In this document: one piece after another, positions 6,285 to 27,036 of the stretch | How the letters are laid out: every line of letters starts with the position of its first letter | Position numbering within the stretch: the first letter of the stretch is position 1 | IMG/VR virus record: IMGVR_UViG_3300038825_000096 | Coordinates: 1 to 27,036 of that record | From: a virus | Length of the DNA stretch: 27,036 nt | Strand: one strand, 5' to 3' | Translations under genes and position numbers: made by a program | Notes under the pieces: model-generated | What the model was told of the DNA's origin: nothing | Database searches by the model: none | What the model saw: the letters and a program-made list of their open reading frames with translations, nothing else

Positions 6285-6301
6285 CTAATATATAATAGAA
6301 A
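6285..6301 (-). promoter_or_regulatory. Late-region motif copy 1 (coding strand TTTCTATTATATATTAG, immediately before ATG 6284)
   Basis: Exact 11-mer TCTATTATATA (plus tatataataga at 6289..6299) shared with four other gene junctions. Confidence 0.55.
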
Positions 6302-6356
6302 TAGTTAATATTTAGTTTTTTTTATTATCTTTGCCACGTTTTCATTTCTCTTGTTA

Positions 6357-6385: not shown

Positions 6386-7586
6386 ATTGCACAAAATACT
6401 TACCTGCATTTGGATTGTCTAAATGATAAATTACGTTATATCTAATGCCATCTATCGCATGATTGTAATTGTCTATGTATAGCTTAGAGCCTTTGTCCTG
6501 ATAGGCATAGTTGTTTAACTCCTTAGCTATATTAGTTGATTCAGGTGTTATGACTAATTCATAATCTTGCATTCTAGTTATGCCGCTTTCAATAGTTCCT
6601 TTTTTAACAGGCTTTATATTTACTCCTAAATGCTTTAAGTCTGCTATTAGCCTAGGTTCTGCTGAATCTGCAATAATAAGAGTGTTGTTTACTTTATCTA
6701 ATATTAACTTAGCTAGGTCATGGCTCTTTAATCCATTTTTATAGATATGCTCTTTTAGATATATCTTCATCTTTCTTTTGTCTATTGCAACTTCTGTTAA
6801 ACTATCAGGGTCAACACTAAATCCAAAATCCATTCCACATGATGTTTGCAGTCCATCTGGATTAAACTCTCCAATACTCCAGTTATCAAATACAACACCC
6901 TCTGCTTTGTCTAGCCACCCACCCATTATCTTATGCTGATACTTTTTAAAGTTCCTATGCTTTATAGCCTTAATACGCTCTAGGAAGCTGTTAGAGAGAT
7001 TTTCTTTATTGTCTAGGTATGTACTATGGATATAACACACATTGTCTTTAACGCCATTAAAACCTGCTTCTACGCCTTTGTCTTGAAAAAATCTATTATA
7101 TATCCAATGCTCTTTAGTTACAGGATTTAATATTAATACTATTCTGTTTTGTATATTCTTCTCTCTAATACTTAAATCAATAGTGTCAAATATATCTTCA
7201 TCAATTAATTCTTCTGCTTCATCTAACACCCAACAGCTAATGCCTTGCAAAGATTTTAAACTTGCGGTTTGGTTTCCTGCTGATGTCTTAATACCTCTAA
7301 ATAAAATATCTGATTTGTTTTTAAGATTAACTACTTCAGCTTTGTTTACACTAAATATATTCTCATATCCTAATAGCTGTATCTTTTCTAAAAACTCAGG
7401 TATTATTGATAGATGTGCTGATACCATTGTGTATCTTGTAAACAAAACCCTAATCCCCTCTGCCATAGTTAGCAAAGTTAAAAATACTGTTACTGCAAAT
7501 GATTTGCCTGAGCCTCTACCACCTGTTATTATAAAATAACGAGCATCAGATGTAAATAGCGGATTATATTTTTTACTCAGATTCAG
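6384..7586 (-). CDS. terL: Terminase large subunit, PBSX/Terminase_3-like. The true start is unresolved and lies upstream of the track start at 7475.
   Basis: Walker A ITGGRGSGKS (7523..7500) and Walker B CWVLDEAEE. Nuclease-half motifs GMDFGFSVDPD, IIADSAEPRLI and NHAIDGIRY. The frame is open from 7589, just after a TAG stop. Confidence 0.9.
   Translation of the reverse strand: MNLSKKYNPLFTSDARYFIITGGRGSGKSFAVTVFLTLLTMAEGIRVLFTRYTMVSAHLSIIPEFLEKIQLLGYENIFSVNKAEVVNLKNKSDILFRGIKTSAGNQTASLKSLQGISCWVLDEAEELIDEDIFDTIDLSIREKNIQNRIVLILNPVTKEHWIYNRFFQDKGVEAGFNGVKDNVCYIHSTYLDNKENLSNSFLERIKAIKHRNFKKYQHKIMGGWLDKAEGVVFDNWSIGEFNPDGLQTSCGMDFGFSVDPDSLTEVAIDKRKMKIYLKEHIYKNGLKSHDLAKLILDKVNNTLIIADSAEPRLIADLKHLGVNIKPVKKGTIESGITRMQDYELVITPESTNIAKELNNYAYQDKGSKLYIDNYNHAIDGIRYNVIYHLDNPNAGKYFVQ
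7092..7102 (+). repeat. Sixth exact copy of the 11-mer TCTATTATATA, in inverted orientation and inside the TerL coding sequence
   Basis: Plus strand atctattatatatcc. It encodes WIYNRFF on the minus strand. Confidence 0.6.
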
Positions 7587-7860: not shown

Positions 7861-7877
7861 TTATTATATAATAGAAA
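7861..7877 (-). promoter_or_regulatory. Late-region motif copy 2 (coding strand GTTTCTATTATATAATAA), 27 nt upstream of the TerS ATG
   Basis: Exact 11-mer at plus 7865..7875, in the 45-nt gap between the NinB-like gene and TerS. Confidence 0.55.
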
Positions 7878-9165: not shown

Positions 9166-9563
9166 TCCGAATATTTTTTATATAGTTTTTTTATTCCATC
9201 ATAGCATGTAGATATACAACTACCACAATTTGTAGTAGGGCTGTAAGAAGTCATGTGTATAACGTTGTATGTTTCTATCATTCTTTTTTTTGCTTGTACA
9301 TTTTTTGCTCTGCCTGTTTTTAAATCTTTCCACATATCTAATATTTCATCTATTATTTCTTGTGGCAAATCATCAGGTGTTTCTATATCTGTTGTTTTTT
9401 GCCAAAAACCCTGCGGACACTCCATTGGTGCCAATCTGCACTTCAGTTTCATAAAACACAAACACCGTTTGCACGTCCCTGTTGGCTTAAAATAATAAAC
9501 ACATGATTTGCATATTTCTAGCCTATCCTTATACACATTATTTGGCACAAAAAACTTATTCAT
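9162..9563 (-). CDS. Cys-rich, probably zinc-binding protein (133 aa)
   Basis: CKSCVYYFKPTGTCKRCLCFMKLKCRLAPMECPQGFW at the N-terminus and CGSCISTC at the C-terminus. It overlaps the sigma-like gene by 8 nt. Confidence 0.55.
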   Translation of the reverse strand: MNKFFVPNNVYKDRLEICKSCVYYFKPTGTCKRCLCFMKLKCRLAPMECPQGFWQKTTDIETPDDLPQEIIDEILDMWKDLKTGRAKNVQAKKRMIETYNVIHMTSYSPTTNCGSCISTCYDGIKKLYKKYSE

Positions 9564-10140
9564 TTAGATTTTTCTTTAAAATGTTTCTTACTTTGTCTAT
9601 TGTTGTAAATATACTATTTCTGCTTATTTTTGTTTTTTTATGTATTTTATCTAGTGTGCTGCCCTCTTCATAATAGTAAAGCTTAAACAATTCCCTATCG
9701 TACCAATATTCTAATTTGTCGAGCTCTTGGTCAATCAATTCCAATTTTTCTAATTTTGTGTTGTCTATTTCTTCATTCGGAATGTTATGTAAACTTTTAG
9801 AAACATTATTGTCAAAATATATATTATCATCATTATAAGTACAACTAAGAGTGTAAATAGAACTATCAATATGTGTGTAATACTTTTCATATTTATAATA
9901 AAAATTGCTTCTAGTGCTTGTTAATGCTCTTCTTAAAGCAACCGCCCCATATCTTGTTAATCCATCTACACCATCTTTCTCATATATATCTTTTAACGTA
10001 TCTGGATTCATTTGGCTAAGAAAATAAAGCATTAATTCTTGCACCGCTTCATTTACTTTGTTTTCATCTGTTGTTAACCCATAAGCCATTGTTCTAAACT
10101 TATCTGTTAATTTAGCTATTTCTAAATATATCTCAGTCAT
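9556..10140 (-). CDS. Sigma-70/ECF-like RNA polymerase sigma factor (194 aa)
   Basis: Region-2-like segment NEAVQELMLYFLSQ...LTRYGAVALRRALTSTRSN. Region-4-like HTH ELFKLYYYEEGSTLDKIHKKTKISRNSIFTTIDKVRNILKKNL. Confidence 0.55.
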   Translation of the reverse strand: MTEIYLEIAKLTDKFRTMAYGLTTDENKVNEAVQELMLYFLSQMNPDTLKDIYEKDGVDGLTRYGAVALRRALTSTRSNFYYKYEKYYTHIDSSIYTLSCTYNDDNIYFDNNVSKSLHNIPNEEIDNTKLEKLELIDQELDKLEYWYDRELFKLYYYEEGSTLDKIHKKTKISRNSIFTTIDKVRNILKKNLNE

Positions 10141-11242: not shown

Positions 11243-11246
11243 CCTG

Positions 11247-12731: not shown

Positions 12732-12733
12732 AA

Positions 12734-13102: not shown

Positions 13103-13108
13103 AGTTTT

Positions 13109-14087: not shown

Positions 14088-14089
14088 AA

Positions 14090-14305: not shown

Positions 14306-14325
14306 TTCTTTTTTATTTTTTAAAA

Positions 14326-14583
14326 TTAGTAATTTAATTGTATGTGAAGCAACATAGAGCAAATAGTCGCTGCAATTAATACACTTGTTATTAGCCAAAC
14401 AGGTATTTTATTTAAGTAGTTAATTTCTTCAATATAATAATCACCTATCATATTACGTTTGCCATACTTATCCCAATTTGACATTTGAGTTTTGCTATAA
14501 GAAAAGAATATATCTTTTTCGTGTTGATTCATAATTTGCGTGTTACCACTTAACTTGTTTGTAATTTTGTAATTTGTTTTCAC
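14326..14583 (-). CDS. First early gene, a small membrane protein (85 aa, C-terminal TM IPVWLITSVLIAATICSMLL)
   Basis: GTG start 27 nt downstream of the predicted promoter. An alternative ATG (MNQHEKD) lies 17 codons in. Confidence 0.45.
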   Translation of the reverse strand: MKTNYKITNKLSGNTQIMNQHEKDIFFSYSKTQMSNWDKYGKRNMIGDYYIEEINYLNKIPVWLITSVLIAATICSMLLHIQLNY

Positions 14584-14610
14584 TTTTCTTTGTTATTGAT
14601 TAATATGGTA

Positions 14611-14641
14611 CAAAGATACAACAAAAAATGATATAAACAAG
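14611..14641 (-). promoter_or_regulatory. Bacteroidota-type promoter (cTTG-N19-TATCTTTG) for the early operon
   Basis: The coding strand reads AACTTGTTTATATCATTTTTTGTTGTATCTTTG. This matches the -33 TTTG / -7 TAnnTTTG consensus with 19-nt spacing, and it lies in the largest non-coding gap. Confidence 0.45.
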
Positions 14642-14782
14642 TTTATTCACAAAAAATGTTAAAAAAAATGCCTTTATATCTAGTAAATTTTTTTAAAAAA
14701 ACTTATAAATTAAGCAAAAGAATGGTGAAAATGATTAAAAAATACAATATAAATAGACGTAAATTTGTTTGTTTTTCGGTCA

Positions 14783-15517
14783 TTATAGCGGCATTAATAG
14801 ATTAATAGGCGTTGTTCCCTCTAAAACTACCCCACAGGCAATAGCAGGTTTTTTACCTCTTTTAGCGTATGCCATTGCGTAAGTATCGTGGTCTATCCCA
14901 CAACCTACCTGCATGCCAAACACCCTAAAGTTTTGACCTACATAGTGTTCTATATAACATTGAGTATGTAAATGACCTTGAACTGTGTTCATCATATCAG
15001 CCCTACATTTTGTTCTGCTCGTTCCTGCTTCTCCATGAATGTATTGAACATTATCAATAACTAATCTATCTACAAACTCCCAATTAGGAACTTCTAAAAC
15101 TTCTCTATAAGACTTAATCCACTTGCTAGGTATTAATGAGGTTTGAGCTTTTCGCATTATCATCCTATCATGATTTCCAACTATTACAGTTGCTTTAGGG
15201 AATGCCCTATACCATTTAGCTATTTTACTTATTGCATGTTCTAACTCTTGCTTTCCTGTATATTCAGCTTCAATATCTATTTCATGAAAACTGGTATAAT
15301 GATTATCAATAATATCACCAATCATTACTACATCTGTGCAGTTCCAAGTTTCATATTGCTCCAAACAAAACTCTAAATATCCATCTAAACAAAATGGTTC
15401 ATGCAAGTCGCCAACAACTAGGACATTCCTAGTGTCAGCTTCTCGCATTTTTTTTAGTGCCGCTATCTCATGCGGCTTTAATCTGTATCTGTTATTACTT
15501 CTTTGCTGCATCTGCAA
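14783..15517 (-). CDS. Calcineurin-like metallophosphoesterase (244 aa)
   Basis: Ordered motifs VVGDLHEP (DxH), IGDIIDNH (GDxxDR-like), GNHD and GHLH. Confidence 0.8.
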   Translation of the reverse strand: MQMQQRSNNRYRLKPHEIAALKKMREADTRNVLVVGDLHEPFCLDGYLEFCLEQYETWNCTDVVMIGDIIDNHYTSFHEIDIEAEYTGKQELEHAISKIAKWYRAFPKATVIVGNHDRMIMRKAQTSLIPSKWIKSYREVLEVPNWEFVDRLVIDNVQYIHGEAGTSRTKCRADMMNTVQGHLHTQCYIEHYVGQNFRVFGMQVGCGIDHDTYAMAYAKRGKKPAIACGVVLEGTTPINLLMPL

Positions 15518-15689
15518 AGCCTTGCCCTAATACTAAAGCACCGATACTGATTAAAATGTTTTTAACCTCTTCAGGATTTAATCCAAAGGTGTCGCTTAAT
15601 AAAGTTGTTACAATTCCAATTACTGTGTACCAAAACTTCCTGCTTTTAAGCATAGAGCCAATTAGATACTTGTTTAAAAAGTCATTCAT
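15495..15689 (-). CDS. Putative holin (64 aa, two hydrophobic segments)
   Basis: FWYTVIGIVTTLL and ILISIGALVLGQGF with a charged C-terminus (DAAKK). It lies immediately downstream of the endolysin. Confidence 0.45.
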   Translation of the reverse strand: MNDFLNKYLIGSMLKSRKFWYTVIGIVTTLLSDTFGLNPEEVKNILISIGALVLGQGFADAAKK

Positions 15690-15718
15690 GATTATTTATT
15701 TTAGTTAGTAAATTTATT

Positions 15719-16153
15719 TTAATTATAAAGCCAAATAACATCTTGGTCTTTTTGTTTATCAACATCACAATGTATAAAACTCTTACCGATTCCAATTCTT
15801 GTTATTCCCACCTCCATTAAAGATTTAACTATTATATATCTATCTCTGCTGCCATTATATCCAATATCTGCCGCTATTCCTTTTTTATGGCTAGAACCTA
15901 CACGCCCACCCACTTTACTATTCCACGCCTTAGTTCTATATCCACTATTGATTTTAAATGGAATACCTGCATTATGCCTAGCATAGTCTAATTTTTCAAG
16001 GAATTTTTTATCCATTTTTGAACCTGAGTTTGGTTCATCAGGGCTATCGAATTCTGATAGTTTAAAATATTTTAAGTCCAAATTATATGTAATATGATTT
16101 GTAAATCTTGCAACCCTTAACTTCTTTAATAAATATTTTATGCATTTTAACAC
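15719..16153 (-). CDS. Endolysin, peptidase M15A-type zinc cell-wall peptidase (144 aa)
   Basis: FKLSEFDSPD...SGYRTKAWNSKVGGRVGSSHKKGIAADI...FIHCDVD carries the H..D...H zinc-ligand arrangement of M15 peptidases. The start is GTG 16153, as there is no upstream ATG in frame. Confidence 0.8.
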   Translation of the reverse strand: MLKCIKYLLKKLRVARFTNHITYNLDLKYFKLSEFDSPDEPNSGSKMDKKFLEKLDYARHNAGIPFKINSGYRTKAWNSKVGGRVGSSHKKGIAADIGYNGSRDRYIIVKSLMEVGITRIGIGKSFIHCDVDKQKDQDVIWLYN

Positions 16154-16265
16154 TATTATCTGTTTTAATATACTTAGGGTTGCTGCTATTTAATTTTCTT
16201 TTTTTCATCTGCAATTATCACATGAATTTAAGCAATACCTGCCGCCTGTTATTATGTTTATTATT

Positions 16266-16427
16266 TTACAAATTATTGTTTTCATATTTTATAAATTTAT
16301 AAATTGTAAATCCTATTGCTAAAACTAAGGATACAAAAGTTAATATTTCGTTGGAATCTGCTAGGCTAAAACCAATAGCCGAACCATTAGCCAACCCTAC
16401 TTGTATTGTGTCTTTTAAATCTGTCAT
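16266..16427 (-). CDS. Small membrane protein (53 aa), a holin/antiholin or spanin-like candidate; below the track size cut-off
   Basis: My translation is MTDLKDTIQVGLANGSAIGFSLADSNEILTFVSLVLAIGFTIYKFIKYENNNL. It runs from ATG 16427 to TAA 16268..16266 and has a clear TM segment. It lies just upstream of the endolysin. Confidence 0.4.
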   Translation of the reverse strand: MTDLKDTIQVGLANGSAIGFSLADSNEILTFVSLVLAIGFTIYKFIKYENNNL

Positions 16428-16508
16428 TTTTATTTGATTTAGGCTTACTTTCCAAGTAGGATTTTAGCTTAGTTATATTTGTATTTTTTGGTTTATAGTG
16501 TTTCTTCA

Positions 16509-17069
16509 TTATGTTAAATCAGGAGTTAAAAAATCTCTTAATGTTAATTTGCTACTCTGCATAGGTCTTTCAAGATTCATACCTGCATAATAGTTATCAG
16601 TTGATGGGCTAACATCTGAGCCTGAATTTGTTGAGTAGGCAGGAAAGCTAGACACGTTATTTCTAATATAAGAAATTAGCCTTTCGCGATAGTAACTCGC
16701 TGTGTTCATGACTTCCTCTCTTAAATGCTGTGCCTCTTCTGTTGTTAAAGCTGTTCCTGTTTCTGATGTTTTAGAATAAATATTACCATTCTCAAATTTG
16801 AACCTCAAAAATGGAATAGCATGATACACCGCATATCCTGGCAAACATTCCGCAATATAATCATCTACTAATGTTTTGTCTGCACCTGCTAATGTTCCTG
16901 CTGTTATCTGTGCTTTCAAATGGGCAGTTAAATCTGTACCTAATGCAGTTTCTATATAAAGCTTCTGTGCTTCACGCACAAATGGCAATAAAATTGCAGG
17001 GTCTATATTTAGATTCAAAGCTGTTGAATCTTTTAATTTATCTTCTGATATAAATAATACGTATGCCAT
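16509..17069 (-). CDS. Putative head-tail adaptor/connector protein (186 aa)
   Basis: It follows the portal directly. The segment NIDPAILLPFVREAQKLYIETALGTDL resembles gp6-like connector N-termini. Confidence 0.4.
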   Translation of the reverse strand: MAYVLFISEDKLKDSTALNLNIDPAILLPFVREAQKLYIETALGTDLTAHLKAQITAGTLAGADKTLVDDYIAECLPGYAVYHAIPFLRFKFENGNIYSKTSETGTALTTEEAQHLREEVMNTASYYRERLISYIRNNVSSFPAYSTNSGSDVSPSTDNYYAGMNLERPMQSSKLTLRDFLTPDLT

Positions 17070-17072
17070 AAT

Positions 17073-19067
17073 CTATCTTGGGTTTAAAAATCCTTGGTTT
17101 CTCATTCTTTTTGGTGGCCTAGCTACTAAGTTATCATTCTTTTCTGCGGTGAACCCCTCACTTCTAGCCTTTGTGTATGATATTAATTGCTTAGATGATA
17201 TATTACCTTTAGCCCCTCTTAAAGACGTTTTATAGATTTGTCTAAGCCAAAAGTGATGGCAGTTTCCACCCCCCTTATAAAGCCATATTGAATACGTTGC
17301 AGCACCTCTAGGCCCCCAACCAGGGTTTACAGCTCTATTAGTCATTTGTAAAATATCTTCCTTCCTGTAAATTTTTCTGCTAGCTGTCATTAACCTGCAA
17401 AACTCACGCGTTTCTCCCTCTTGACTTAAAAAATTATCTTTTGTATAAACATATCTAACTTTGTAAAAGTCATTATCAGACCTGTTAGTGCCATCCTGAC
17501 TACTTCTTGCATTTGGCCTAGCTGTTCCTGTTGATGCTAATTCTAACTTTTTATTAGCCTCTTCATTTAACACCTGTTCAAAATTAAAATCTTGATGCTC
17601 ACCATCTACCACCTCTTCCTCTATTAATTCCCAATCATCAGGCATATCCTCACCAAATTCCTCAATAAACTTAGATAGCTCTGTTGCCTCTTCATGCCCC
17701 TCACACGCCATATAAACCGTTTTCCCCTCATATTCATGCTCATGGTACCCCTCACACCCTTTTGTCTTTGCGTGAGCCTCAGCCTCTTCTATTGTGCTAA
17801 AAACAGGCTCTCCATCAATCATGCCTACTTTGCTGAACTTTACATCCTGCTCTATTGTATCTTCATCACCTAATTTGTCAAGCCCAAGCTCCTCACGTAT
17901 TTCGTCTGTTGTCATAACTTCTCTGATTGTCTTAGAATCAAATTGTACTGTAATTGGTTTTAATTGTACAAAGCGAACAGGCATATCCATATCGTTAACT
18001 TGGAATATTTTTCTAAGCTGTTTGATTAGCATACCTTGAAAAGGCAAAATTACTGTTTGTCTGTAAAAATCAGCAGCATTTATTAGTTCATCAGTATTTG
18101 ATGAAAAGCCATTAGCACTATCAATACCCATTAGAGTTTTAGATGTTACCCTATGTCCGCTTAAAATGTTTTGTGTCAATAGTTCTTGTAGCGCTAAATA
18201 TTGCTCTGATAATTTATCTGGTGTTATTGCTTGTATTTCTGGAGTTCTAGTCTTATCATCTGAAAATGTAAGAACAAATTTACCTGCATTATTTTGCCCT
18301 GTAAATTTATCTGTTAAACTCTGCTCTATTTGAAATCTCTCCTCTTGCGTTGGTATTCCATTTGAAAAATTAATCATAAAAGAACCTGCAAATCCACTAG
18401 ATATATTATTAAGGTGAAATTCGCTAATCCTAGAATCTATTAAAGCCCAATTGTTACAGCTAACGTAATCAGGAGTGTAGTAGCTATTCATATTAGGGCT
18501 ATAAAGACCTGCATACATTATTTGATTAGCTGAGGTTCTATCATTAACATTAAAAGCAGGAACATAATAAGGTTTGTTTTGTCTAGTATTAGCCCAATCA
18601 GAACTAATATAATATCCTGGTGTTTTACCAAACTCATCAGGTCTTGCACATCTTATCTTCTCTACTGCCACATGATATATTTCTGCTATTTGTGTTCTAT
18701 CTTTACTCCATACAATATTAAGCGCAAAAGCACCCTGTAATTTAAAATCAAAAGATAATTTTTTAATTACTTCATGTAGGCTTTCATTACCATTAGCCCT
18801 ATCCATAAAGTTTTGTAGTTTTACCCTAGCCTCTAAATCTCTATCATCTTCATCTTCTATTATCAAATCCTCTCCTGCTATCATTTCAGAAGTAGCATTA
18901 ATAATTGCTGCTGTAATAGAACTAGAGTAATACAAGTCTATTAAGAATTGAGGGTATAAATTACGCCAATCATCAGTTCCATATTCTATCCAATCCCTAC
19001 CCCTAGTTTCAGAAATAATTGGAGAAGTTGAAGTTTCTAAATTAATATTAATAATATTGTCTTTCAT
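17073..19067 (-). CDS. Portal protein fused to a MuF/SPP1 gp7-like minor head domain (664 aa)
   Basis: Portal signatures include YPQFLIDLYYSSSITAAIIN, FTGQNNAGKFVLTF and LTQNILSGHRVTSKTLMG. An acidic Cys/His linker follows (GCEGYHEHEYEGKTVYMACEGHEE). The C-terminus TREFCRLM...YKGGGNCHHFW is MuF-like. Confidence 0.75.
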   Translation of the reverse strand: MKDNIININLETSTSPIISETRGRDWIEYGTDDWRNLYPQFLIDLYYSSSITAAIINATSEMIAGEDLIIEDEDDRDLEARVKLQNFMDRANGNESLHEVIKKLSFDFKLQGAFALNIVWSKDRTQIAEIYHVAVEKIRCARPDEFGKTPGYYISSDWANTRQNKPYYVPAFNVNDRTSANQIMYAGLYSPNMNSYYTPDYVSCNNWALIDSRISEFHLNNISSGFAGSFMINFSNGIPTQEERFQIEQSLTDKFTGQNNAGKFVLTFSDDKTRTPEIQAITPDKLSEQYLALQELLTQNILSGHRVTSKTLMGIDSANGFSSNTDELINAADFYRQTVILPFQGMLIKQLRKIFQVNDMDMPVRFVQLKPITVQFDSKTIREVMTTDEIREELGLDKLGDEDTIEQDVKFSKVGMIDGEPVFSTIEEAEAHAKTKGCEGYHEHEYEGKTVYMACEGHEEATELSKFIEEFGEDMPDDWELIEEEVVDGEHQDFNFEQVLNEEANKKLELASTGTARPNARSSQDGTNRSDNDFYKVRYVYTKDNFLSQEGETREFCRLMTASRKIYRKEDILQMTNRAVNPGWGPRGAATYSIWLYKGGGNCHHFWLRQIYKTSLRGAKGNISSKQLISYTKARSEGFTAEKNDNLVARPPKRMRNQGFLNPR

Positions 19068-19077
19068 ATTTTTTATT

Positions 19078-19755
19078 TTATAAGGCTGCTAACCATGTAT
19101 TGACATTAGCTGTTAATGCCGCACTTGTACTGCTGTATATTTGTATCTCTCTCATGGTGCCATCATAGGCTGCTCCATCATCAAATTTAATTCCTATTGC
19201 TTGTATTTCTGCCTGACCTGTTTTGGTTCCTGAATCGGTTTGCTGAACACCATCTACCCATAAATTAACTGTGCCGCTAGAACGTGTTAAAACTATATAC
19301 TGCTCCCCTGTAAAAGTACCACTATTTAATGTTAAATCTAATGGTGCAGTTCCATCAATTTTTAATCTCAATGTATTGCTAGATTGAAACCTTAAAAACT
19401 CTCCTACAGCAGTATTATCCGCTAATAGCGTTCCTGTTGTTGCTGCTACATTAAAACGAATACCAATAGTAAAATCATTTGCTAATTCTATATCACTTCC
19501 GCTTAATTCTAAACACTCAATATTAGCAGGATTAAAAGTTAAAACTCCTGCTGAATATGCAGGTTGTTGGGCAGCATCTGATTGGCTCATAGTATAACCA
19601 TTGCCTGAACTATCTCTCCATTCACTAACATCAGAGCCATTTAAAACAATTCCTGTTGCCATTTTATACCATGCTACAACATTATCAGAGCCAGGTGTCC
19701 AACCGCCTTGAGGTCTTATTCTATTTAAGCTTAATTTTTGACTAAGTGATAACAT
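19078..19755 (-). CDS. LamG/concanavalin-A-like lectin domain protein (225 aa)
   Basis: VAWYKM...DSSGNGYTMSQ...FTIGIRFN...YIVLTRSSGTVNLWVDGV...GTMREIQIYS is a typical Laminin_G_3 pattern. Confidence 0.65.
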   Translation of the reverse strand: MLSLSQKLSLNRIRPQGGWTPGSDNVVAWYKMATGIVLNGSDVSEWRDSSGNGYTMSQSDAAQQPAYSAGVLTFNPANIECLELSGSDIELANDFTIGIRFNVAATTGTLLADNTAVGEFLRFQSSNTLRLKIDGTAPLDLTLNSGTFTGEQYIVLTRSSGTVNLWVDGVQQTDSGTKTGQAEIQAIGIKFDDGAAYDGTMREIQIYSSTSAALTANVNTWLAAL

Positions 19756-19756
19756 A

Positions 19757-20032
19757 TTATGTAGTTGCTCCCTCGCTGTAACCTACGCCAACTCCGCTAC
19801 TAAGCTGTATCTGCGTAACATTCATAAATAAAGTTGTTCCTGCAGGTAGTGTTGTTTGTAATGCTGAATCTCCTGTTGCATCTGCTACTGTTATTGAACT
19901 TACCACGCTTTCCACAGGAAAGTAAACACAATACCAATCTTTGCTAGTTTGGTCTGCTGTTGTAAATATCTCAGTTCCTCCATTTTTACCTAGCTGCTCT
20001 GTTAATAATTGTTGTACGTTTTCTATTGCCAT
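19757..20032 (-). CDS. Small virion-module protein (91 aa)
   Basis: ORF with an ATG start, separated from the LamG gene by a single nucleotide (19756). Confidence 0.5.
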   Translation of the reverse strand: MAIENVQQLLTEQLGKNGGTEIFTTADQTSKDWYCVYFPVESVVSSITVADATGDSALQTTLPAGTTLFMNVTQIQLSSGVGVGYSEGATT

Positions 20033-20042
20033 TTTTTAATTT

Positions 20043-20741
20043 TTATCCGTTATAAATATAATTGTTTTCTTGAATACTAGCTGTTATACTAGCTGTTGCT
20101 GTTTCGCCTACACTTGAAAGCGTAACAACAGGATTTTCGGTATATCCGTTTCCTGCATATACTATTGTTACACTATCTACAACACCACCTGATATGGTAC
20201 ATGTTGCAGTTGCAGGAGTTATGCAGTCACCTGTTATTGTTACAGTAGGGGCAATAGGGTAGCCAATGCCGCCATATGCTATGTCTAAGCTAATAACCTC
20301 GCCACCATTTTGAGTATATTGCACCTCTTCTGTTCCGCTAAGTTCTGATACTAAAACTTTTCCTTTTGTAACTAATCCTTGTACTACACCTCTCCTTATA
20401 CTTGCAGGTAGTAATACTGCTAATTCAGTTGATGGTGCTTGTTCATTATCTAATGCTGCAAAAGCCCCCCATGTAACCTCATAAACTTCGTATTTCCAAT
20501 ATCCTGATGGTTTTAAATCAACACGCCCTAAAAACACATCAGGTACTGCGTTGTAGCTAAATGAGAATTTACTATACCTGTTGTATAATTGCTGCTCAGG
20601 ATAAGCGTATTGTACCGCCCCACTCATATCATTAGTAAACTTAAACAAATACCTAGTGTTAGTATCATTAGCAGTACCAATCCTCACATCCTGAGTTTGT
20701 ATGTATGCATGAAAGCTAGAATTTGTTGTTGCGTGTATCAT
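20043..20741 (-). CDS. Virion structural protein with two GxGY...P.VT repeats (232 aa)
   Basis: YGGIGYPIAPTVTITG and AGNGYTENPVVTLSS. It is the first gene after terminator plus motif copy 3. Confidence 0.5.
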   Translation of the reverse strand: MIHATTNSSFHAYIQTQDVRIGTANDTNTRYLFKFTNDMSGAVQYAYPEQQLYNRYSKFSFSYNAVPDVFLGRVDLKPSGYWKYEVYEVTWGAFAALDNEQAPSTELAVLLPASIRRGVVQGLVTKGKVLVSELSGTEEVQYTQNGGEVISLDIAYGGIGYPIAPTVTITGDCITPATATCTISGGVVDSVTIVYAGNGYTENPVVTLSSVGETATASITASIQENNYIYNG

Positions 20742-20752
20742 AATTAGTGTAC

Positions 20753-20767
20753 CTATTATATAATAGA
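20753..20767 (-). promoter_or_regulatory. Late-region motif copy 3, containing the perfect 14-bp palindrome CTATTATATAATAG
   Basis: Exact 11-mer at plus 20757..20767. It lies 11 nt upstream of ATG 20741 and just downstream of the terminator. Confidence 0.55.
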
Positions 20768-20788
20768 AAAAGGTCTTATTTATTTGCT

Positions 20789-20819
20789 AATAAAAGAAAA
20801 AGAGGGCATAAAGCCCTCC
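20789..20819 (-). terminator. Rho-independent terminator after the putative tail tube gene
   Basis: Coding strand GAGGGC-TTTAT-GCCCTC followed by TTTTTCTTTTATT, about 36 nt after the stop at 20855. Confidence 0.75.
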
Positions 20820-20854
20820 TAATCAAGAATATATATAAAAACTAATGATAAGTT

Positions 20855-21439
20855 TTATGATGTAGTTATAGATACATTTGTAAATGCTGCATTATCAAAT
20901 GGATTTGTAGTGTAATCAGCTACCATTGCAAAAGGCTCTGCCTCCATGCCCGATAGTGTAAGATTATAACCGCCTCTATCACCGAAAGCAGCCCCTGTAA
21001 CCATAGTTCCTGCATTAAGTTCCATTCCGTTAACAACCCCCATTCCAATAATTATATCATGTCCGTTTGTTAATTGTGCATTTAACTGACAAAATACAAC
21101 TACTTTTGTTGAAGCTAAAAGTTTAATCTCATGTTGGTCTTCTTTAGTTAGTCTATTTAAAATAACTTCTACTGTTGGCTCATAGAATACTGTTCCGTTT
21201 TCTCTACTACCTGTTATCGTATCAGTAGCTGATGCAACGCCTAATGGCATTGTGTAACGATACAAGCCAGTTCCTGCTCCCATCTCAATATCTGTTATTT
21301 CACCATTAGAAACTACAATACCTGTTCCATCAATAGGTGCTGTAAATTGGTCGTAAACTCCAAAATAAACGTATTTGATGCCACCTGATACTCTATTACA
21401 ATCAAGCCCTCTACCTTTAGTTAAATTAGTACATGCCAT
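20855..21439 (-). CDS. Putative major tail (tube) protein (194 aa)
   Basis: It lies directly after the capsid gene and is followed by a strong terminator. GGIKYVYF...TVFYEPTVEVIL...GDRGGYNLTLSGMEAEP resembles siphovirus major tail protein patterns. Confidence 0.45.
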   Translation of the reverse strand: MACTNLTKGRGLDCNRVSGGIKYVYFGVYDQFTAPIDGTGIVVSNGEITDIEMGAGTGLYRYTMPLGVASATDTITGSRENGTVFYEPTVEVILNRLTKEDQHEIKLLASTKVVVFCQLNAQLTNGHDIIIGMGVVNGMELNAGTMVTGAAFGDRGGYNLTLSGMEAEPFAMVADYTTNPFDNAAFTNVSITTS

Positions 21440-21467
21440 ATTTTTTTATGTTTTAAAGGTTATAGAG

Positions 21468-21487
21468 GCGAGAGCCGAAGCCCTCGC
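21468..21487 (-). terminator. 8-bp stem with a UUCG tetraloop between the capsid and tube genes, with no U tract (attenuator or mRNA 3' stabiliser?)
   Basis: The coding strand is GCGAGGGC-TTCG-GCTCTCGC (7 Watson-Crick pairs plus 1 G-U). Confidence 0.4.
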
Positions 21488-21505
21488 ATCTGTTAATTTA
21501 GTTTA

Positions 21506-22438
21506 TTATGATTGTCTAACAATGTCTGCACCGATACCAGTTTGAACACCACCTGAGTAACGAACAACTAATCTCATGTTGTCTGAGCCGTCTAATTGAG
21601 CCATGTCCATTAAAGTAATTCTAGGCCCTGTTCCTGTTTCGCCAAAGTCAGAAACCAAATCAGTTCCCCAGTATAAGTTAGATTTTTGTGCTGCTACTAA
21701 CTGATTATCAACCATTCCAGGACAAACAGCAATTTTGTAACCCTCAAATACAGGCTCATAGTCGCCATTCATGTTGTAAGCATTAACATATCCTAATGTC
21801 GATACTGCTGAAATATAAAATGCATAAGTCTTAGGATTCATGTAAATGTGTGTATCTTCTTTTGATAAGATATTAGGAACATTAGCTGCCATGTCAGCAG
21901 TTAAAGTTTGTAAGTTAGCTATGATGTTAGCTGCTGAATAAGCACCTGATGCAGTTGATTGTACAACTGTTGCATCAACACCTGGTAAAAGGTATCCAAC
22001 AGCAGTTCCTAAAAATCCTGTAAATTCTCCTGCATTACCTGCAACACCACTCCATATAGAGTTTTCTGTTGCATCTGCAATAGTACTACCCATGTAAGAT
22101 ATTACATAGTCTGTAAAGTCAGCAGGAGGCATACCCTCAGGTCCTGACATGTTAGCCGATTCCCATCCTGAAACTAAGTTATTTTTGCAAAGGTCAATGT
22201 TAATTTGTAGAGCCTTCGGGGTAATAATTTTATCAGCGAGCGTTAGGGTTCCCGCATCTGTAAAATCACATGTAGCATCTGCTACTAAATTTGCACCTGC
22301 AAAAGTTTGCAATGCACTCTTATAACGAACATTGTTTATTTGCGTTATAAAAGATAAAGATTTTGCTTCTTTTAAAGCCGCTGCTAGATATACCCCTGCG
22401 GATTTACCTGCATACGATTGATTTACTGTAAAAGCCAT
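21506..22438 (-). CDS. Major capsid protein, HK97-fold-like (310 aa)
   Basis: Its position after the protease and acidic scaffold, its size, and its composition support the call. The N-terminal MAFTVNQSYAGKSAGVYLAAALKE and the C-terminal RLVVRYSGGVQTGIGADIV are typical of MCP families. Confidence 0.75.
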   Translation of the reverse strand: MAFTVNQSYAGKSAGVYLAAALKEAKSLSFITQINNVRYKSALQTFAGANLVADATCDFTDAGTLTLADKIITPKALQINIDLCKNNLVSGWESANMSGPEGMPPADFTDYVISYMGSTIADATENSIWSGVAGNAGEFTGFLGTAVGYLLPGVDATVVQSTASGAYSAANIIANLQTLTADMAANVPNILSKEDTHIYMNPKTYAFYISAVSTLGYVNAYNMNGDYEPVFEGYKIAVCPGMVDNQLVAAQKSNLYWGTDLVSDFGETGTGPRITLMDMAQLDGSDNMRLVVRYSGGVQTGIGADIVRQS

Positions 22439-22464
22439 AATTTTTGTTTTTTATTTGTTAATTA

Positions 22465-23181
22465 TTATTTATTTAAGTTATATAAGAATCTTTCTTGTTT
22501 AGAAAGTTTGTTGTATTCTTTTCTTGACAATACAGGTCTTGCTTTGTCAGAACTAAATTTGTTTGTGTTAATTGGAGCATCAGCAGGACTTGCCGCTAAT
22601 TCCGTTTTTAACTTTTCGTTTTCAGCTTTTAATTTTTCTATTTCATCTTCTGCTGAAAATTCTACTACTTCTGTTGTTTTAATAGACTTAGGATTTGTAG
22701 ATGGCTCTGCTGTTTCTTCTGCCATTTCTTCAACATCACCTGTTTCACCTATCTCTCTTTTAAGGTCAGCCACAGCATCCTCTAGGTTTTTGATTCTTTT
22801 CTCCATACCTTCCCAATCGCCTACTGCTGCCTCATCATCATACTCATCCTTATCATCTTCTTTTGCCATTTCTTCCTTTTCTTCTGCTAAATCATCTGCC
22901 GTATCCTCTTCCTCTGTTTCTGATTCCATAACTTCTGAAACTACTCCCTCTTCTTCTACTCTAAATGATACTCCTGTATCTGTTTTGTAAGTTCCGATTG
23001 GAACAAGGATTGTCGTGCCATCCTCTAGCAATACAGATATATCTACACCTGCTTCTAGTTCTTCAGCAGTAGAAACGAAAATAGTTCCACCATCTTCTGA
23101 CTTAGACTGCCATCCTAATTTAATTTCTTCCTCAGCTTTGTTTAAACCAAGTGCTACTAATATTTGTTCTTTAATATCCAT
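22465..23181 (-). CDS. Scaffolding protein (238 aa, highly acidic, coiled-coil)
   Basis: Long D/E runs (ESETEEEDTADDLAEEKEEMAKEDDKDEYDDE) and a heptad-like EIEKLKAENEKLKTEL. It lies between the protease and the capsid gene. Confidence 0.7.
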   Translation of the reverse strand: MDIKEQILVALGLNKAEEEIKLGWQSKSEDGGTIFVSTAEELEAGVDISVLLEDGTTILVPIGTYKTDTGVSFRVEEEGVVSEVMESETEEEDTADDLAEEKEEMAKEDDKDEYDDEAAVGDWEGMEKRIKNLEDAVADLKREIGETGDVEEMAEETAEPSTNPKSIKTTEVVEFSAEDEIEKLKAENEKLKTELAASPADAPINTNKFSSDKARPVLSRKEYNKLSKQERFLYNLNK

Positions 23182-23202
23182 GATTAATGTTTTAGGTTCT
23201 GT

Positions 23203-23237
23203 TATATAATAGATTTATTTTGAGTTTGTTTGATTTT
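23203..23237 (-). promoter_or_regulatory. Late-region motif copy 4 plus upstream block AAAATCAAACAAA, ahead of the scaffold gene
   Basis: Exact 11-mer at plus 23203..23213 and the upstream block at 23225..23237. The element overlaps the 3' end and stop of the XkdF-like gene. Confidence 0.55.
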
Positions 23238-23934
23238 CACGTATTATCTCATTTAAAGCTGATAGTATTTCTTCATCTGTTGGTGTTCTCTCTGACATCT
23301 TAGCCATCTTGTCTGTAAAGTAGCCCTCTATACTAAGCCCTTTTAATTTGCCCTCTTTAATCTCTCTCCAGAGTTCATCATTAGTTATCTTCATTTTAAC
23401 GAACCATGTGCCATTAGGCAAATCATAGCCATATAATTTAGATTTATCACTATCTCCCTCTTTTATCCATGATTCTACTGTTAGAACGCCTGATACTCTT
23501 TCGTTGTGTTCATGTGTAGCTTTATGATGGTTATTGTGTTTTAAATATAACTCACTAGCTTTTCTTATAGTTTCAGGGCGAAAAAAAACATAATACTCAG
23601 AATCTGTATTTGGGTCATATCTAAATATATGTTTGTTAGGTATTAATGCAGGACTAACTAGCATTCTTTTCTCTTCATCTACCTTAGCAAAGGTTAGATT
23701 ATTTTTTTCTTTACCAAAAAACACAAAGTCCTGTTCTATTGCAGGTGAGTTTACTAAGCTAATAGCATCAATAGCTAATTCCTCACTTTCATCTGCAATT
23801 ACAAGTTCTACAATTGATGTAGTTTTTTCGTAATAGTCTTTATTGTCTTGTTGGCATTCGGTTAACGTGTCATATTTACACTCACCAGTATTGCCAAATT
23901 TATATTTTCCGTTTTCGCATTCTTTACATGGCAT
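23215..23934 (-). CDS. XkdF-like prohead serine protease family protein (239 aa)
   Basis: SLVNSPAIEQDF...VSPALIPNK...ETIRKASELYLKHN...HEHNE...VESWIKE...WFVKMKITNDELWREIKEGKLKGLSIEG matches the PBSX XkdF-like pattern. A Cys-rich N-terminal extension is present. Confidence 0.65.
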   Translation of the reverse strand: MPCKECENGKYKFGNTGECKYDTLTECQQDNKDYYEKTTSIVELVIADESEELAIDAISLVNSPAIEQDFVFFGKEKNNLTFAKVDEEKRMLVSPALIPNKHIFRYDPNTDSEYYVFFRPETIRKASELYLKHNNHHKATHEHNERVSGVLTVESWIKEGDSDKSKLYGYDLPNGTWFVKMKITNDELWREIKEGKLKGLSIEGYFTDKMAKMSERTPTDEEILSALNEIIRENQTNSK

Positions 23935-23936
23935 AT

Positions 23937-23973
23937 TATATAATAGATTTAATTAATAATTTGTTTGATTTTT
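23937..23973 (-). promoter_or_regulatory. Late-region motif copy 5 plus upstream block AAAATCAAACAAA, with 2 nt between the 11-mer and the XkdF-like ATG
   Basis: Exact 11-mer at plus 23937..23947 and the upstream block at 23960..23972. It has the same two-block architecture as copy 4. Confidence 0.55.
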
Positions 23974-25423
23974 ATATTGTAGCTTGTCGCCTAATGTTAG
24001 CTAATTGGTCTTGCGAATTAGTCATTTCATCAGTTACAACAAACGCTTTCATAGGCTCAGGTGCCAATCCTCCGCCTAATTCAAAAGCCCCTGACATCAT
24101 TTGTGGTGCAGGTATTGATGATTTAAACTCACTACCAGATGCCCCTGCACTACTTGTATCTGGTGGTGAACCTGCTGCAATTTTAGCAATATTTGTAGCG
24201 GCAAAACCTGCTGCTAGTCCTGCCATCACTAACGGATAACCACCTGCTGTCGCTGCTGTTAGTGCAATATTGGCATTTGCTGCCGTAAAGGCATTTTGTA
24301 CACCTTGAACTCCTGAGATTGTAGCCTGTGCAATGGCTGCTGCCTTACCTATTGCAGTACCCTCACCTGCTGCTTGTTGTATCACTCGCAATCCCTGCAT
24401 TGTGACATCTTTTCTAAAAGCCTGTAAATCCTGTTCTAGCTGTTTTTTCTTTTTTTGATTTATTTCTAATTGTGCAATATAATCATTATCTGCCTGTATA
24501 AGTTCGTTGTTTACTTTTGCAACTATGCTTGGCATTTTTTCAATATCTCCAAACCTTTCATCAAATGCTTCTTTTCGTTCTTTTAGCCTAGCCTGTTCTT
24601 CTGCGTGTATTTCACGTTCTAAAGCGTTTACCTCAGTTACAACCCTTCGCCTCATTTTAATAGATGCAGTTTCCTTTTCAATTAATTCAACTTTTAAGCT
24701 AGCTAGCTTTTGTTCATCTTCTATTAGATTTTCAGATTGTGCCATTTCTTGCTCTTGTATTGCCAATCTTTCACTTGCTAACTCTAACTCTCTTTGTGTG
24801 GTTTTTTCTTCTAAGTCTAGTGCAACCTTTAAATTCTCTAGCCTTTCTTTTGCTGATTTTGTTTCATCTTCTGCTATTAACCTTGCTCTTTCTATTTCTT
24901 GTCTAGTCGCTGCCTTTTGTACCATGAACTCTAAATCTGCATCTCTCAATTCTTGCGTTCTTCTTTTTAACTCAGTCATAGCAACAACCTCACGCTCTAT
25001 TTCATCTGCTATCCCTGAAAATGTTTCTTTTAAAGCATCTCCTGCCTTTTGAAACTCTCCTGAAAATACAAAAGTTAAAACTTCTCCAAATTTTGAAAAT
25101 CTATCCACTAAAACATCAACAACAGCCCCCATTCCTGCCAAAGCCTTTTCAAGTTGGTCTGCACCTCTTTTAGTATTTGTAAAATAAGATACTAGCGAAC
25201 CTATTGCCACTAGAAATGCTCCAATACCTGTGCTTATTAATCCTGCCTTAACAGAAGCAAACATAGTCTTTGCCTGTTTACCTGCTGATAAAAACCCTGC
25301 TTTAACAGAGTTTAAAGACACCCCCATTATTTTAAACTCAGCTGCCGCATTTTTAGCATCCTTGCCTACTTTGCCAACATCTGATTTTACATTTAGGTTT
25401 AAAGTTTCTGTTTTACTTGCCAT
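23972..25423 (-). CDS. Tape-measure-like or internal ejection protein (483 aa)
   Basis: N-terminal hydrophobic segments, a long central E/K/R/Q coiled-coil, a G/A-rich hydrophobic C-terminal block (ALTAATAGGYPLVMAGLAAGFAATNIAKIAAG) and a conserved-looking tail VVTDEMTNSQDQLANIRRQATI. Confidence 0.5.
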   Translation of the reverse strand: MASKTETLNLNVKSDVGKVGKDAKNAAAEFKIMGVSLNSVKAGFLSAGKQAKTMFASVKAGLISTGIGAFLVAIGSLVSYFTNTKRGADQLEKALAGMGAVVDVLVDRFSKFGEVLTFVFSGEFQKAGDALKETFSGIADEIEREVVAMTELKRRTQELRDADLEFMVQKAATRQEIERARLIAEDETKSAKERLENLKVALDLEEKTTQRELELASERLAIQEQEMAQSENLIEDEQKLASLKVELIEKETASIKMRRRVVTEVNALEREIHAEEQARLKERKEAFDERFGDIEKMPSIVAKVNNELIQADNDYIAQLEINQKKKKQLEQDLQAFRKDVTMQGLRVIQQAAGEGTAIGKAAAIAQATISGVQGVQNAFTAANANIALTAATAGGYPLVMAGLAAGFAATNIAKIAAGSPPDTSSAGASGSEFKSSIPAPQMMSGAFELGGGLAPEPMKAFVVTDEMTNSQDQLANIRRQATI

Positions 25424-26282: not shown

Positions 26283-27036
26283 TATATAATAAGTATAAAT
26301 TCTACTGTTGCTAAATCGCCTGGTTTGTAATCTATTTTGTTTACTCTATATTCTCTATTTTTGATAAATACATTGTCAAAAAAATTAAAGCTGTTCATAT
26401 CGCCTGGAGTTAAATTTACTTTTAATGTCATAGTCCTTGTATCTGCATTATACAACTCATTAAAATAAGGCAACCAATAAAGATAAAATAGATTGTTTGT
26501 GGTTGCATTTCCTATTGGTTGAAAAAGCTGACAATCTCCAAAATGGAAATCATTTGTATCTGTTGGTTGTGGTGGTATTGTTGTTACAGTTGGTATATCT
26601 GTTAAATGGCTAAACTGTAAAAAGTCTGTCATTTGCTCTCCTGCTTCTGTGTTTTGAGCAGGTATATAATATGTGCAACTTGTTAAAGTCTTTACACCAT
26701 TGTTATACATGATTCTAGGACTGTTTGCAAAACCTTGAGATGTACCATCATCAGGGTTGTAAGAATATATTGCAGGTGTTATAAAATCAGAAAACTGTGA
26801 CATCAAAGGTTTAGGAACTGTTGCTGCAAAAGGCTCTGGTATTATTTCTTCCTCTCCTGTTAATATTGTAGGGAATCCATTTCCTGATAATGAAGCATCA
26901 AAAAGTTTAGAACCATATAAATGTCCTTGTACTGCTCCTTTGTAAAGATTAAAAGCATAATCATCATCATCCTCAACGAATTTAAAAGTAGTTAATTTAT
27001 TTAAAGTCGTTAATGGTGTTAATTTAATTTCTTCTA
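26282..27036 (-). CDS. C-terminal part of the same wrap-around 921-aa tail fibre gene (unique part 26282..26937)
   Basis: The track ORF 26282..26806 begins at a TTG only because the finder needs a start codon. The frame is open upstream to 27036 and (26938-26806) is divisible by 3, so it joins position 1 in frame. The TAA stop at 26284..26282 overlaps the ATG of the next gene (TAATG). Confidence 0.8.
   Translation of the reverse strand, partial: EEIKLTPLTTLNKLTTFKFVEDDDDYAFNLYKGAVQGHLYGSKLFDASLSGNGFPTILTGEEEIIPEPFAATVPKPLMSQFSDFITPAIYSYNPDDGTSQGFANSPRIMYNNGVKTLTSCTYYIPAQNTEAGEQMTDFLQFSHLTDIPTVTTIPPQPTDTNDFHFGDCQLFQPIGNATTNNLFYLYWLPYFNELYNADTRTMTLKVNLTPGDMNSFNFFDNVFIKNREYRVNKIDYKPGDLATVEFILII
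26938..27036. repeat. Terminal overlap, copy B (identical to 1..99)
   Basis: Exact 99-nt identity with the window start. Position 26938 is in frame with ORF 26282..26806, and there is no stop in 26807..27036. Confidence 0.95.

Follow-up and report, generated by a model that had tools for sequence, protein, structure and literature searches.

Bacillus phage SPO1 encodes the sigma factors gp28 and gp33/34, which possess their own bipartite middle and late promoters. The late promoters of phage T4 carry TATAAATA at -10 and no -35 element, and they are read by gp55 together with gp33 and the gp45 clamp. Promoters of extracytoplasmic function (ECF, group 4) sigma factors are characterized by AAC in the -35 and CGT in the -10 region. 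The sigma switch of SPO1 has been summarised previously (PMC13401047), and in flavobacteria the AAC/CGT hallmark is represented by the motif SM6 (PMC9723704). A further group comprises the late activators RinA, ArpU and LtrC of Gram-positive temperate phages, small proteins with similarity to sigma region 4 that act on a promoter just upstream of terS; each late operon has one such promoter, the activator binds further upstream, and a role as sigma factor was thought unlikely by the authors (PMC3152322). Here we compare with these systems an 11-mer, TCTATTATATA, that stands in front of late genes in the IMG/VR virus record IMGVR_UViG_3300038825_000096; the whole stretch of 27,036 nucleotides that was analysed is called the window throughout. 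We propose that TCTATTATATA forms the box of the -10/initiation region in a bipartite late promoter that is specific to the phage.

According to this proposal, the host sigmaA RNA polymerase would first fire the early operon at a TAnnTTTG promoter near position 14611. Second, this operon would make a divergent ECF-like sigma factor, encoded by the open reading frame (ORF) 9556-10140, and third, the phage sigma would retarget the host core polymerase to five late promoters. These would head TerS-TerL, gene 5682 onward across the circle junction, the XkdF protease, the scaffold-MCP-g20855 unit (MCP, major capsid protein), and gene 20043 through the portal gene and onward. We consider it very likely that the element is a late promoter, and with distinctly more reserve we lean towards the full model, in which the ECF-like phage sigma reads this promoter and many late messenger RNAs (mRNAs) are leaderless. 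Promoter activity, start site and the pairing of sigma and promoter are what we infer from sequence, and the pairing is correlative.

In kind, a phage sigma factor with phage-specific late promoters as proposed here would not be new, with SPO1 and T4 as precedents. Like the scheme outlined above, SPO1 proceeds from a host-sigma early promoter via an early operon with a small sigma to a core polymerase that is retargeted to a repeated two-box phage consensus. In contrast to SPO1, the host would be flavobacterial with TTTG/TAnnTTTG promoters, the boxes are unrelated, there is a single late class of five copies, and most copies have their predicted start on or beside the start codon. With T4 late promoters the window shares an AT-rich, TATA-like and highly conserved -10 word before late genes and, as candidate reader, a very divergent sigma-family protein, whereas the window family has a conserved upstream box at fixed spacing and a sigma4-like domain in this protein. 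ECF systems are resembled by the two-domain sigma-like protein and by two boxes with a rigid spacer, and in the clade of the cultured Nonlabens phage P12024L the late motif itself reads AAAACAAA-N-CGTTAATA, with 12 nt from the C of CGT to the ATG. However, the window family carries (A)ATC…TCTA where ECF promoters have AAC…CGT, its spacer is 2 nt longer, its invariant stretch from -10 to +1 is unusually long, the protein stays below curated family cut-offs, and no anti-sigma partner was seen. The element would work like an ECF promoter, while we do not file it as a canonical one. As in the RinA/ArpU/LtrC group, a small sigma-like phage protein would serve packaging and structural genes, but the window has five predicted promoters and a candidate with a full sigma2-plus-sigma4-like architecture.

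A two-box element at five late-gene junctions

The window bears a 99-bp terminal direct repeat (positions 1-99 equal 26938-27036) and thus represents a complete, circularly assembled phage genome of 26,937 bp, in which all assigned genes are located on the minus strand. Within its 27,036 bases, TCTATTATATA occurs in six exact copies, five on the minus strand at gene starts and one on the plus strand. By chance a mean of 0.11 copies is expected, and 100 dinucleotide-preserving shuffles gave a maximum of 2 and never 6. The first-pass annotation of this DNA had roughly estimated less than one chance occurrence, which agrees with this composition-matched null, and it had placed all six copies correctly (Table 1), as it had the ATG distances, the TATAAT or TATAAC continuations and the perfect 14-bp palindrome CTATTATATAATAG at 20753-20766. 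The coding-strand copies precede TerS, the first gene after TerL, the protease, the scaffold gene and the first gene after the capsid block, and thereby split the late half of the circular genome into units. It had also been claimed that a terminator precedes the copy at 20757; indeed, the best intrinsic-terminator-like hairpin of the region 5000-24999 is located directly upstream of this copy, and it is conserved in relatives.

An alignment of 121 unique copies, numbered with the first T of the 11-mer as position 0, revealed that the word is the downstream half of a bipartite, asymmetric element, so that the earlier view of the 11-mer alone as the element was not borne out. The consensus reads AAAATCAAATAAA, a spacer of 11-12 nt, TCTATTATATA and then nTA. 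In the upstream box a C at -19, found in 111 of the 121 copies, is followed by AAATAAA. The spacer is poorly conserved in sequence and measures 11 nt in 167/220 copies, 12 nt being a minor class, and a T-rich run lies between spacer and 11-mer. Downstream of the word, position 12 is T in 108 and position 13 is A in 117 of the 121 copies, and T/purine at 12/13 recurs in all site classes, even in those of TerS and scaffold with their start codons 24-43 nt off. Bacterial transcription usually starts on a purine that follows a pyrimidine, about 6-8 nt downstream of the -10 core. The T/purine pair fits a start, which we would place at the conserved purine at position 13; counted from there, the box C would sit at -12, which is the geometry of the CGT box in P12024L.

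In the window itself, four of the five coding-strand copies (0.00 expected) fit the pattern CAAAYRAA-N10-13-TCTATTATATA, with the site at 6289 as exception. Scanning with a position weight matrix returned 4 hits, exclusively on the coding strand, as against zero in 20 shuffles. That the late element is distinct from the host-type element, as the first-pass annotation had stated, was confirmed: the best alignment of the late box with TAnnTTTG reaches 3 of 6 specified bases, whereas the site at 14611 is a conserved TAnnTTTG. The sixth, plus-strand copy reads as a coding coincidence within TerL, and the coding context of the conserved TerL peptide W-I-Y-N-R explains at least 6 of the 15 reverse copies found in relatives (see below). 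A one-mismatch copy at 10443-10453, inside gene 10133-10489, was dismissed, as a spaced upstream box is missing.

Two of the sites are accompanied by further structures. The TerS leader (7834-7862, minus strand) contains the dyad TTGAATAATCAA, conserved as TTGA(A/T)TAATCAA, which in relatives takes the form of the perfect 12-bp palindrome ACTTGATTAATCAAAAT (with an RNA hairpin of only -0.4 kcal/mol) or of GGATTGAATAATCAATCT (a 7-bp stem of about -6 kcal/mol). Its role would be that of an operator or else of a small hairpin that regulates the packaging genes specifically. Ahead of the predicted promoter at 6289, the hairpin GGGGCGGCattacGCCaaCCCCC follows TerL (6355-6383, minus strand); it has a T run on the opposite strand and none on the gene strand.

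Conservation in marine relatives and in phage P12024L

Queries of IMG/VR with the capsid protein and TerL yielded 160 marine viral loci, many of them from contigs of 27-30 kb. Together with the window (1.73 Mb in total) these contain 288 exact copies of the 11-mer that are oriented with the genes and 15 in reverse orientation. Unique copies, classed by the protein encoded downstream, precede homologues of gene 20043 (54 copies) and gene 5682 (51), the protease and TerS (44 each) and the scaffold gene (28), and these five syntenic classes equal the five sites of the window. The conservation of the motif in related phage genomes, raised as a check by the first-pass annotation, is hence evident from the strand bias and the five shared junctions. 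Twelve further copies stand before ORFs without a counterpart in the window proteome; in seven cases the ATG of such an ORF is 13 nt away, and eight listed examples share an MKQQVK-like N-terminus. In five reconstructed relatives, of which only 329_088 is complete, 3-5 exact copies at matching spacing were recovered over 23-28.5 kb, and two shortfalls are filled by a one-mismatch copy with an upstream box; overall, a reconstructed genome holds about 5 sites. The word remains exact in genomes with an MCP identity of about 70% (range 70-98%), while the flanks have diverged freely, and in loci that lack the exact word the one-base variants TCTATTATATT, TATATTATATA and TCTATTTAATA occupy the same sites. 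Upstream of the TerS-class element the sequence varies among relatives, being the 3' end of NinB in some and other genes in others. We are almost certain that the TCTATTATATA element is a conserved cis-element at the heads of late genes, and judged by its conservation we regard it as functional.

The distance to the start codon was determined for 243 unique copies as the position of the first long-ORF ATG, counted from the start of the 11-mer. The ATG stands at position 13 in 80 copies, at 14 in 4, at 15 in 52 and at 16 in 11, whereas 90 copies have it at 11 or at 21-53 and 6 lack a qualifying ORF. In 147 copies (about 60%) the word thus ends 2-5 nt before the ATG. Position 13 dominates in the protease class (42/44 unique copies) and position 15 in the gene 5682 class (42/51), while the TerS copies are located 40-43 nt upstream of the start codon. 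The orthologous gene-20043 protein (M-I-Q/H-A…) starts at 13, 14, 15, 16, 26 or 27 nt across relatives, and since this distance floats, the element is not locked to the ATG like a ribosome-binding signal. A transcription start at position 13 would give gene 20043 leaders of 0, 2, 3 or 13 nt, and the five sites of the window leaders as listed in Table 1. These distances suggest that the late mRNAs are leaderless or have very short leaders. The first-pass annotation had recorded the proximity of some copies to the ATG as a caveat; the close spacing is real and, rather than an objection, is the rule in this family. In Flavobacterium johnsoniae, leaders of more than 10 nt account for 87% (PMC6847099). 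As flavobacterial mRNAs mostly possess leaders, leaderless late mRNAs would be a peculiarity of the phage.

Comparison with described phages gave few matches. No match was obtained when 25 kb were compared by megablast with 50,697 phage records, a search of the phage records with the sigma-like protein found none, and tblastn with MCP and portal hit the Nonlabens (Persicivirga) phages P12024S/L only. P12024L/S (genus Inhavirus) are the only cultured phages with detectable similarity, at 27% identity for the MCP and 31% for the portal. Around them, 'group 1' of putative Flavobacteriaceae phages has been built (Nishimura et al., 2017; PMC5332604), to which the window phage family probably belongs. 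The relatives form an abundant group of uncultured marine flavobacterial phages. A full-text literature search for the 11-mer returned unrelated papers only, and a published description of either the window or the P12024L motif was not found.

P12024L shares with the window its gene order, a sigma-like gene in syntenic position and, in register, a late motif directly before late start codons. In contrast to the window, its genome comprises 35.7 kb with some genes on the opposite strand, its downstream box is CGTTAATA, and its spacer is shorter. Its gp35, annotated as Sigma-70 region 2, is syntenic with the sigma-like gene of the window and matches ECF models at a sub-threshold 5.6e-8. The N-terminus of gp35 aligns with the profile of the window family (hhalign E 2.8e-4), while pairwise BLAST of the window protein against gp35 was not significant. 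We found six sites AAAACAAA(T)A…TT(T/C/A)(C/A)CGTTA(A/T)TA in P12024L, which have the classical ECF shape AAAACAAA…CGTTAATA-N4-ATG and all begin exactly 16 nt before the annotated ATG of a gene in the structural region (gp01, gp05, gp08, gp42, gp45 and gp46). The sites before gp05, gp08 and gp45 lie directly behind opposite-strand genes, so a new transcript must begin there; should the linear record be circularly permuted, the minus-strand block gp51-58 would come before the gp01 site (163). Motif and spacing are retained in those relatives of P12024L whose sigma proteins are 47-67% identical. When set in register with the ATG, TTTCCGTTAATATAACATG from P12024L and TTTTCTATTATATAATATG from the window share 14 of 19 bases, and the C of TCTATTATATA holds the position of the box C in P12024L, 12 nt before the ATG. 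Two distant phage clades thus appear to pair a sigma-like gene each with its own version of one promoter design.

Beyond these two clades, most contigs with distant sigma homologues are too short for testing whether sigma and box co-vary; the clade L174 retains TCTATTATA. As a separate observation, the contigs L171 (9168-9179 and 17054-17065) and L173 (742 and 8628) carry AAAC…ACCCATTACTAA 2-4 nt before two start codons, one preceding NinG and the other following TerL, and the sigma of the L171 contig is a distant homologue (profile E 8.9e-39). This AAAC..ACCCATTACTAA-N2-4-ATG arrangement, known in two copies only, possibly represents a third form of the promoter design; mismatch-tolerant matches were not enriched, and two copies are too few to count as evidence.

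A candidate sigma factor and the competing readings

With moderate confidence we regard ORF 9556-10140 as a divergent ECF-like sigma factor. It has 1,927 homologues, two of which, among the matches listed, are named sigma factors by JGI. The NCBIfam model TIGR02937 (sigma70-ECF superfamily) matches 24/24 sampled homologues over nearly their full length, at best with 1.3e-8 and for the window protein with 5.2e-5, while all 24 fall below the curated cut-off of 42.9 bits. Two Bacteroidetes-associated ECF models of NCBIfam match 15 (Sig70_bacteroi1) and 16 of these 24 proteins, and Pfam Sigma70_r4 matches 8, the window protein not among them. Neither RinA nor ArpU is found among the NCBIfam matches listed (25 of 35 families) for the 24 homologues. 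The AlphaFold2 model, with a mean predicted local distance difference test score (pLDDT) of 67, shows two helical domains with a disordered linker (residues 77-126) between them. Among its top 50 Foldseek matches in the PDB one entry (9n9q_C) is unclear; the others are sigma factors or RNA polymerase complexes whose matched chain carries a sigma label. The best match is the ECF factor SigL (6dv9_F, E 1.3e-3, full-length), and others include SigH, SigW, AlgU, RpoE and sigma32. The E values are marginal and the template modelling scores are low, the latter because the two domains are free to move. Profile and structure matches hence both uphold the sigma-like character that the first-pass annotation had ascribed to this ORF, the former at sub-threshold level.

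The sigma-like gene is flanked by two conserved minus-strand ORFs, 10133-10489 and 9162-9563, which gave no family hits. The former, of 118 aa, overlaps the sigma start and has a syntenic counterpart of 119 aa in L171, L174 and L163; a role as sigma partner or modulator is conceivable.

Several observations weigh against the model of a phage sigma reading these promoters. The invariant -10 region spans 11-14 bp, which is longer than a sigma factor usually specifies, and an additional or different DNA-binding protein may therefore be involved. The boxes of the window family show no ECF hallmark, and the distance from the C of the upstream to the C of the downstream box amounts to 19 nt there as opposed to 17 nt in P12024L. 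Pfam gives no match for the sigma-like protein of the window, and a PDB sequence-profile search produced no sigma, only weak MraZ hits that we regard as spurious; the assignment is built on sub-threshold profile hits and a medium-confidence model whose Foldseek E values are 1e-3 and weaker. Three of the five sites lack a terminator-like hairpin upstream, so that read-through transcripts could translate the genes without a new start. Finally, leaderless mRNAs are rare in flavobacteria, with 5.5% in F. psychrophilum (PMC9723704).

Some of these points bear on the question of who reads the promoter. If a host ECF sigma, or the host polymerase aided by another phage activator on the upstream box, were the reader, ORF 9556-10140 would do something else. 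MotA, RinA and Mor are phage activators of the kind required for the second variant. Sigma and promoter are linked only through their joint occurrence in two or three clades, the sigma assignment is sub-threshold, and several small early ORFs of the window have no assignable function. Moreover, flavobacteria hold several ECF sigmas, 7 in F. psychrophilum (PMC9723704). However, both phage clades keep the sigma-like gene at the same position, each with its own downstream box, the P12024L boxes are of the ECF AAC..CGT shape, and the early ORFs that were scanned yielded no other DNA-binding regulator. We thus consider another reader unlikely, albeit deserving of attention.

The first-pass annotation had named a late promoter or an operator. 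For the latter, the palindromic core TATTATATAATA would be bound by a dimeric phage regulator at the late junctions, with the promoter proper elsewhere. This would agree with the perfect palindrome at 20753-20766, with the 12-bp palindrome that positions 2-13 form whenever position 11 is A, with the conservation of T12 and A13, and with an invariant stretch that is long for a sigma element. However, position 11 is A in 62/121 copies only, and G at position 14, which completes the 14-bp palindrome, is found in 20/121; the homologous P12024L box CGTTAATAtaac is not palindromic. In addition, the element has a strict orientation, and its asymmetric partner box is confined to one side. We regard the dyad as a by-product of a TATA-like sequence and the operator as improbable. 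While the promoter part of the earlier proposal gains from the orientation, the five junctions, the two boxes, the 12/13 pair and the P12024L sites, its emphasis on palindromy and a dimeric regulator is not supported.

Another possibility is a role in the RNA, where the word would act as an AU-rich enhancer of translation initiation or as a processing site before late start codons of a host that does not use Shine-Dalgarno pairing. The close ATG spacing in 147/243 copies, the fixed 16 nt in P12024L and the three sites without an upstream hairpin would fit such a function. Furthermore, in the commonest class the last A of the 11-mer is the -3 base of the ATG, and A at -3 favours initiation in Bacteroidetes (PMC6847099). 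However, the ATG distance spans 11-53 nt overall and 13-27 nt for one orthologous gene, and the TerS copies are far from the start codon. Moreover, 11-12 nt upstream of the word there is a second conserved box, in many cases within the preceding gene, and the ordinary genes of the phage are A-rich upstream without carrying this word. At the three P12024L sites behind opposite-strand genes a transcript must begin, and no Rfam family matched. Taken together, an RNA role is very improbable. A recombination boundary or chance repeat without regulatory role, to which the coincidence of mosaic joints with the motif in the TerS class might point, is next to negligible given 6 copies against 0.11 expected, five syntenic positions kept at about 70% MCP identity and the extreme strand bias, while mosaic joints at shared promoters are an expected by-product.

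Genome context and implications

Gene identities were obtained from profile matches and are listed with the boxes in Table 1.

Table 1. Boxes, putative signals and genes of the window; starts and leaders are predictions
Feature	Position	Strand	Remark
Downstream (-10-like) box TCTATTATATA before gene 20043-20741	20757..20767	minus	predicted start A 20754, 13-nt leader
Upstream (-35-like) box CAAATAAA	20779..20786	minus	11 nt before the 11-mer
Intrinsic-terminator-like hairpin AGGAGGGCTTTATGCCCTCTT with T run	20800..20820	minus	would end the scaffold-MCP-g20855 unit just before the promoter
Downstream box before XkdF-like protease	23937..23947	minus	predicted start 23934, the A of ATG; leaderless (0 nt)
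Upstream box CAAACAAA	23960..23967	minus	12-nt spacer
Downstream box before scaffold gene 22465-23181	23203..23213	minus	predicted start 23200, 19-nt leader
Upstream box CAAACAAA	23225..23232	minus	11-nt spacer
Downstream box before TerS 7573-7833	7865..7875	minus	early/late gene boundary; predicted start 7862, 29-nt leader
Upstream box CAAATGAA	7888..7895	minus	12-nt spacer; within 3' end of NinB-like gene
Downstream box before gene 5682-6284	6289..6299	minus	predicted start 6286, 2-nt leader
Degenerate upstream box AAACTAAATA	6309..6318	minus	class-specific variant AAACTAAA at -19 to -12
Inverted exact 11-mer inside TerL	7092..7102	plus	outside the system; no upstream box; codes for WIYNR
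Candidate trans factor, divergent ECF-type sigma-like (sigma2 + sigma4)	9556..10140	minus	194 aa; near end of early operon
Host-type (Bacteroidetes sigmaA) -7 box TATCTTTG of putative early promoter	14611-14618	minus	fits TAnnTTTG
XkdF-type protease	23215-23934	minus	profile match
Scaffold candidate	22465-23181	minus	profile match
Capsid-protein (MCP) candidate	21506-22438	minus	profile match
Gene 20043-20741	20043-20741	minus	first gene after capsid (MCP) block
Portal	17073-19067	minus	profile match
Metallophosphoesterase	14783-15517	minus	profile match
Replication initiator	11602-12222	minus	profile match
NinG	10512-10922	minus	profile match
NinB-like gene	7879-8262	minus	profile match
Small TerS candidate	7573-7833	minus	profile match
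TerL	6384 to about 7559	minus	profile match
Gene 5682-6284	5682-6284	minus	first gene after TerL

The putative early promoter, TTG…TATCTTTG, sits in an intergenic region of 199 nt (14584-14782). Divergent relatives retain its TAnnTTTG at the corresponding position, and a conserved CATAtTAAt leader comes after the promoter. The sigmaA consensus of Bacteroidetes is -33 TTTG / -7 TAnnTTTG, with TAnnTTTG at about -12 to -5 (PMC6847099). A Shine-Dalgarno core is found in only 2 of 40 genes of the window and A at -3 in 28 of 40, the pattern reported for F. johnsoniae (PMC6847099). The conserved TAnnTTTG promoter and the near absence of Shine-Dalgarno cores indicate a Bacteroidetes host. The strict host pattern TTTG-N15-22-TAnnTTTG was not enriched in the window (5 against 2.9 expected), and it was the conserved -7 box by which the putative early promoter was recognised. 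A scan for sigma-70-type promoters gave 105 sites against 90 expected, which is uninformative in an AT-rich genome and employs the wrong model for Bacteroidetes. Rfam and tRNA scans of the window returned no matches.

Three other features of the genome deserve mention. First, between the in-frame upstream TAG and the Walker A motif GGRGSGKS (7540-7600, minus strand), the TerL frame has no ATG, GTG or TTG; in all relatives it opens with a conserved (K/T/A)L(N/I/K)L(S/N)xKY(N/Q/T)(P/A)LF, beginning at CTG codons in overlap with the TerS stop. Initiation at CTG, coupled re-initiation or a TerS-TerL fusion through a +1 shift could account for this. Second, a GC-rich hairpin, GCGAGGGC-ttcg-GCTCTCGC, directly follows the stop of the capsid gene without a T tail (21455-21490, minus strand), and it may act as a transcript stabiliser or as a partial terminator that raises capsid mRNA over that of the downstream genes. 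Third, an ORF of roughly 900 aa spans the circle junction, from about 2100 via 1/27036 to about 26282.

One might speculate beyond the window. It is possible, although tentative, that a whole, abundant lineage of marine Flavobacteriaceae phages, comprising the window family as well as P12024 and its kin, runs its late programme through a private, fast-diverging ECF-like sigma. Transcription would then begin from or beside the start codon, most late messages would be leaderless, and the spacing of the boxes (19 versus 17 nt) would co-vary with the sigma linker (proteins of 194 and 159 aa). Since the same logic is found in the cultured P12024L, the late programme predicted for the window is testable at the bench. 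A small sigma with a promoter of roughly 45 bp could furthermore serve as an orthogonal expression switch for Bacteroidetes, in which standard bacterial promoters fail.

For these abundant uncultured marine phages, whose flavobacterial hosts are important degraders of algal bloom material, the model would provide a transcription map consisting of one host-type early promoter, one sigma-like gene and five late promoters. On the tentative reading for the whole lineage, most late messages would be leaderless in a phylum with rare leaderless mRNAs and without Shine-Dalgarno pairing, and if the leaderless reading holds, this would be a clear case of a virus that uses a mode of initiation rare in its host.

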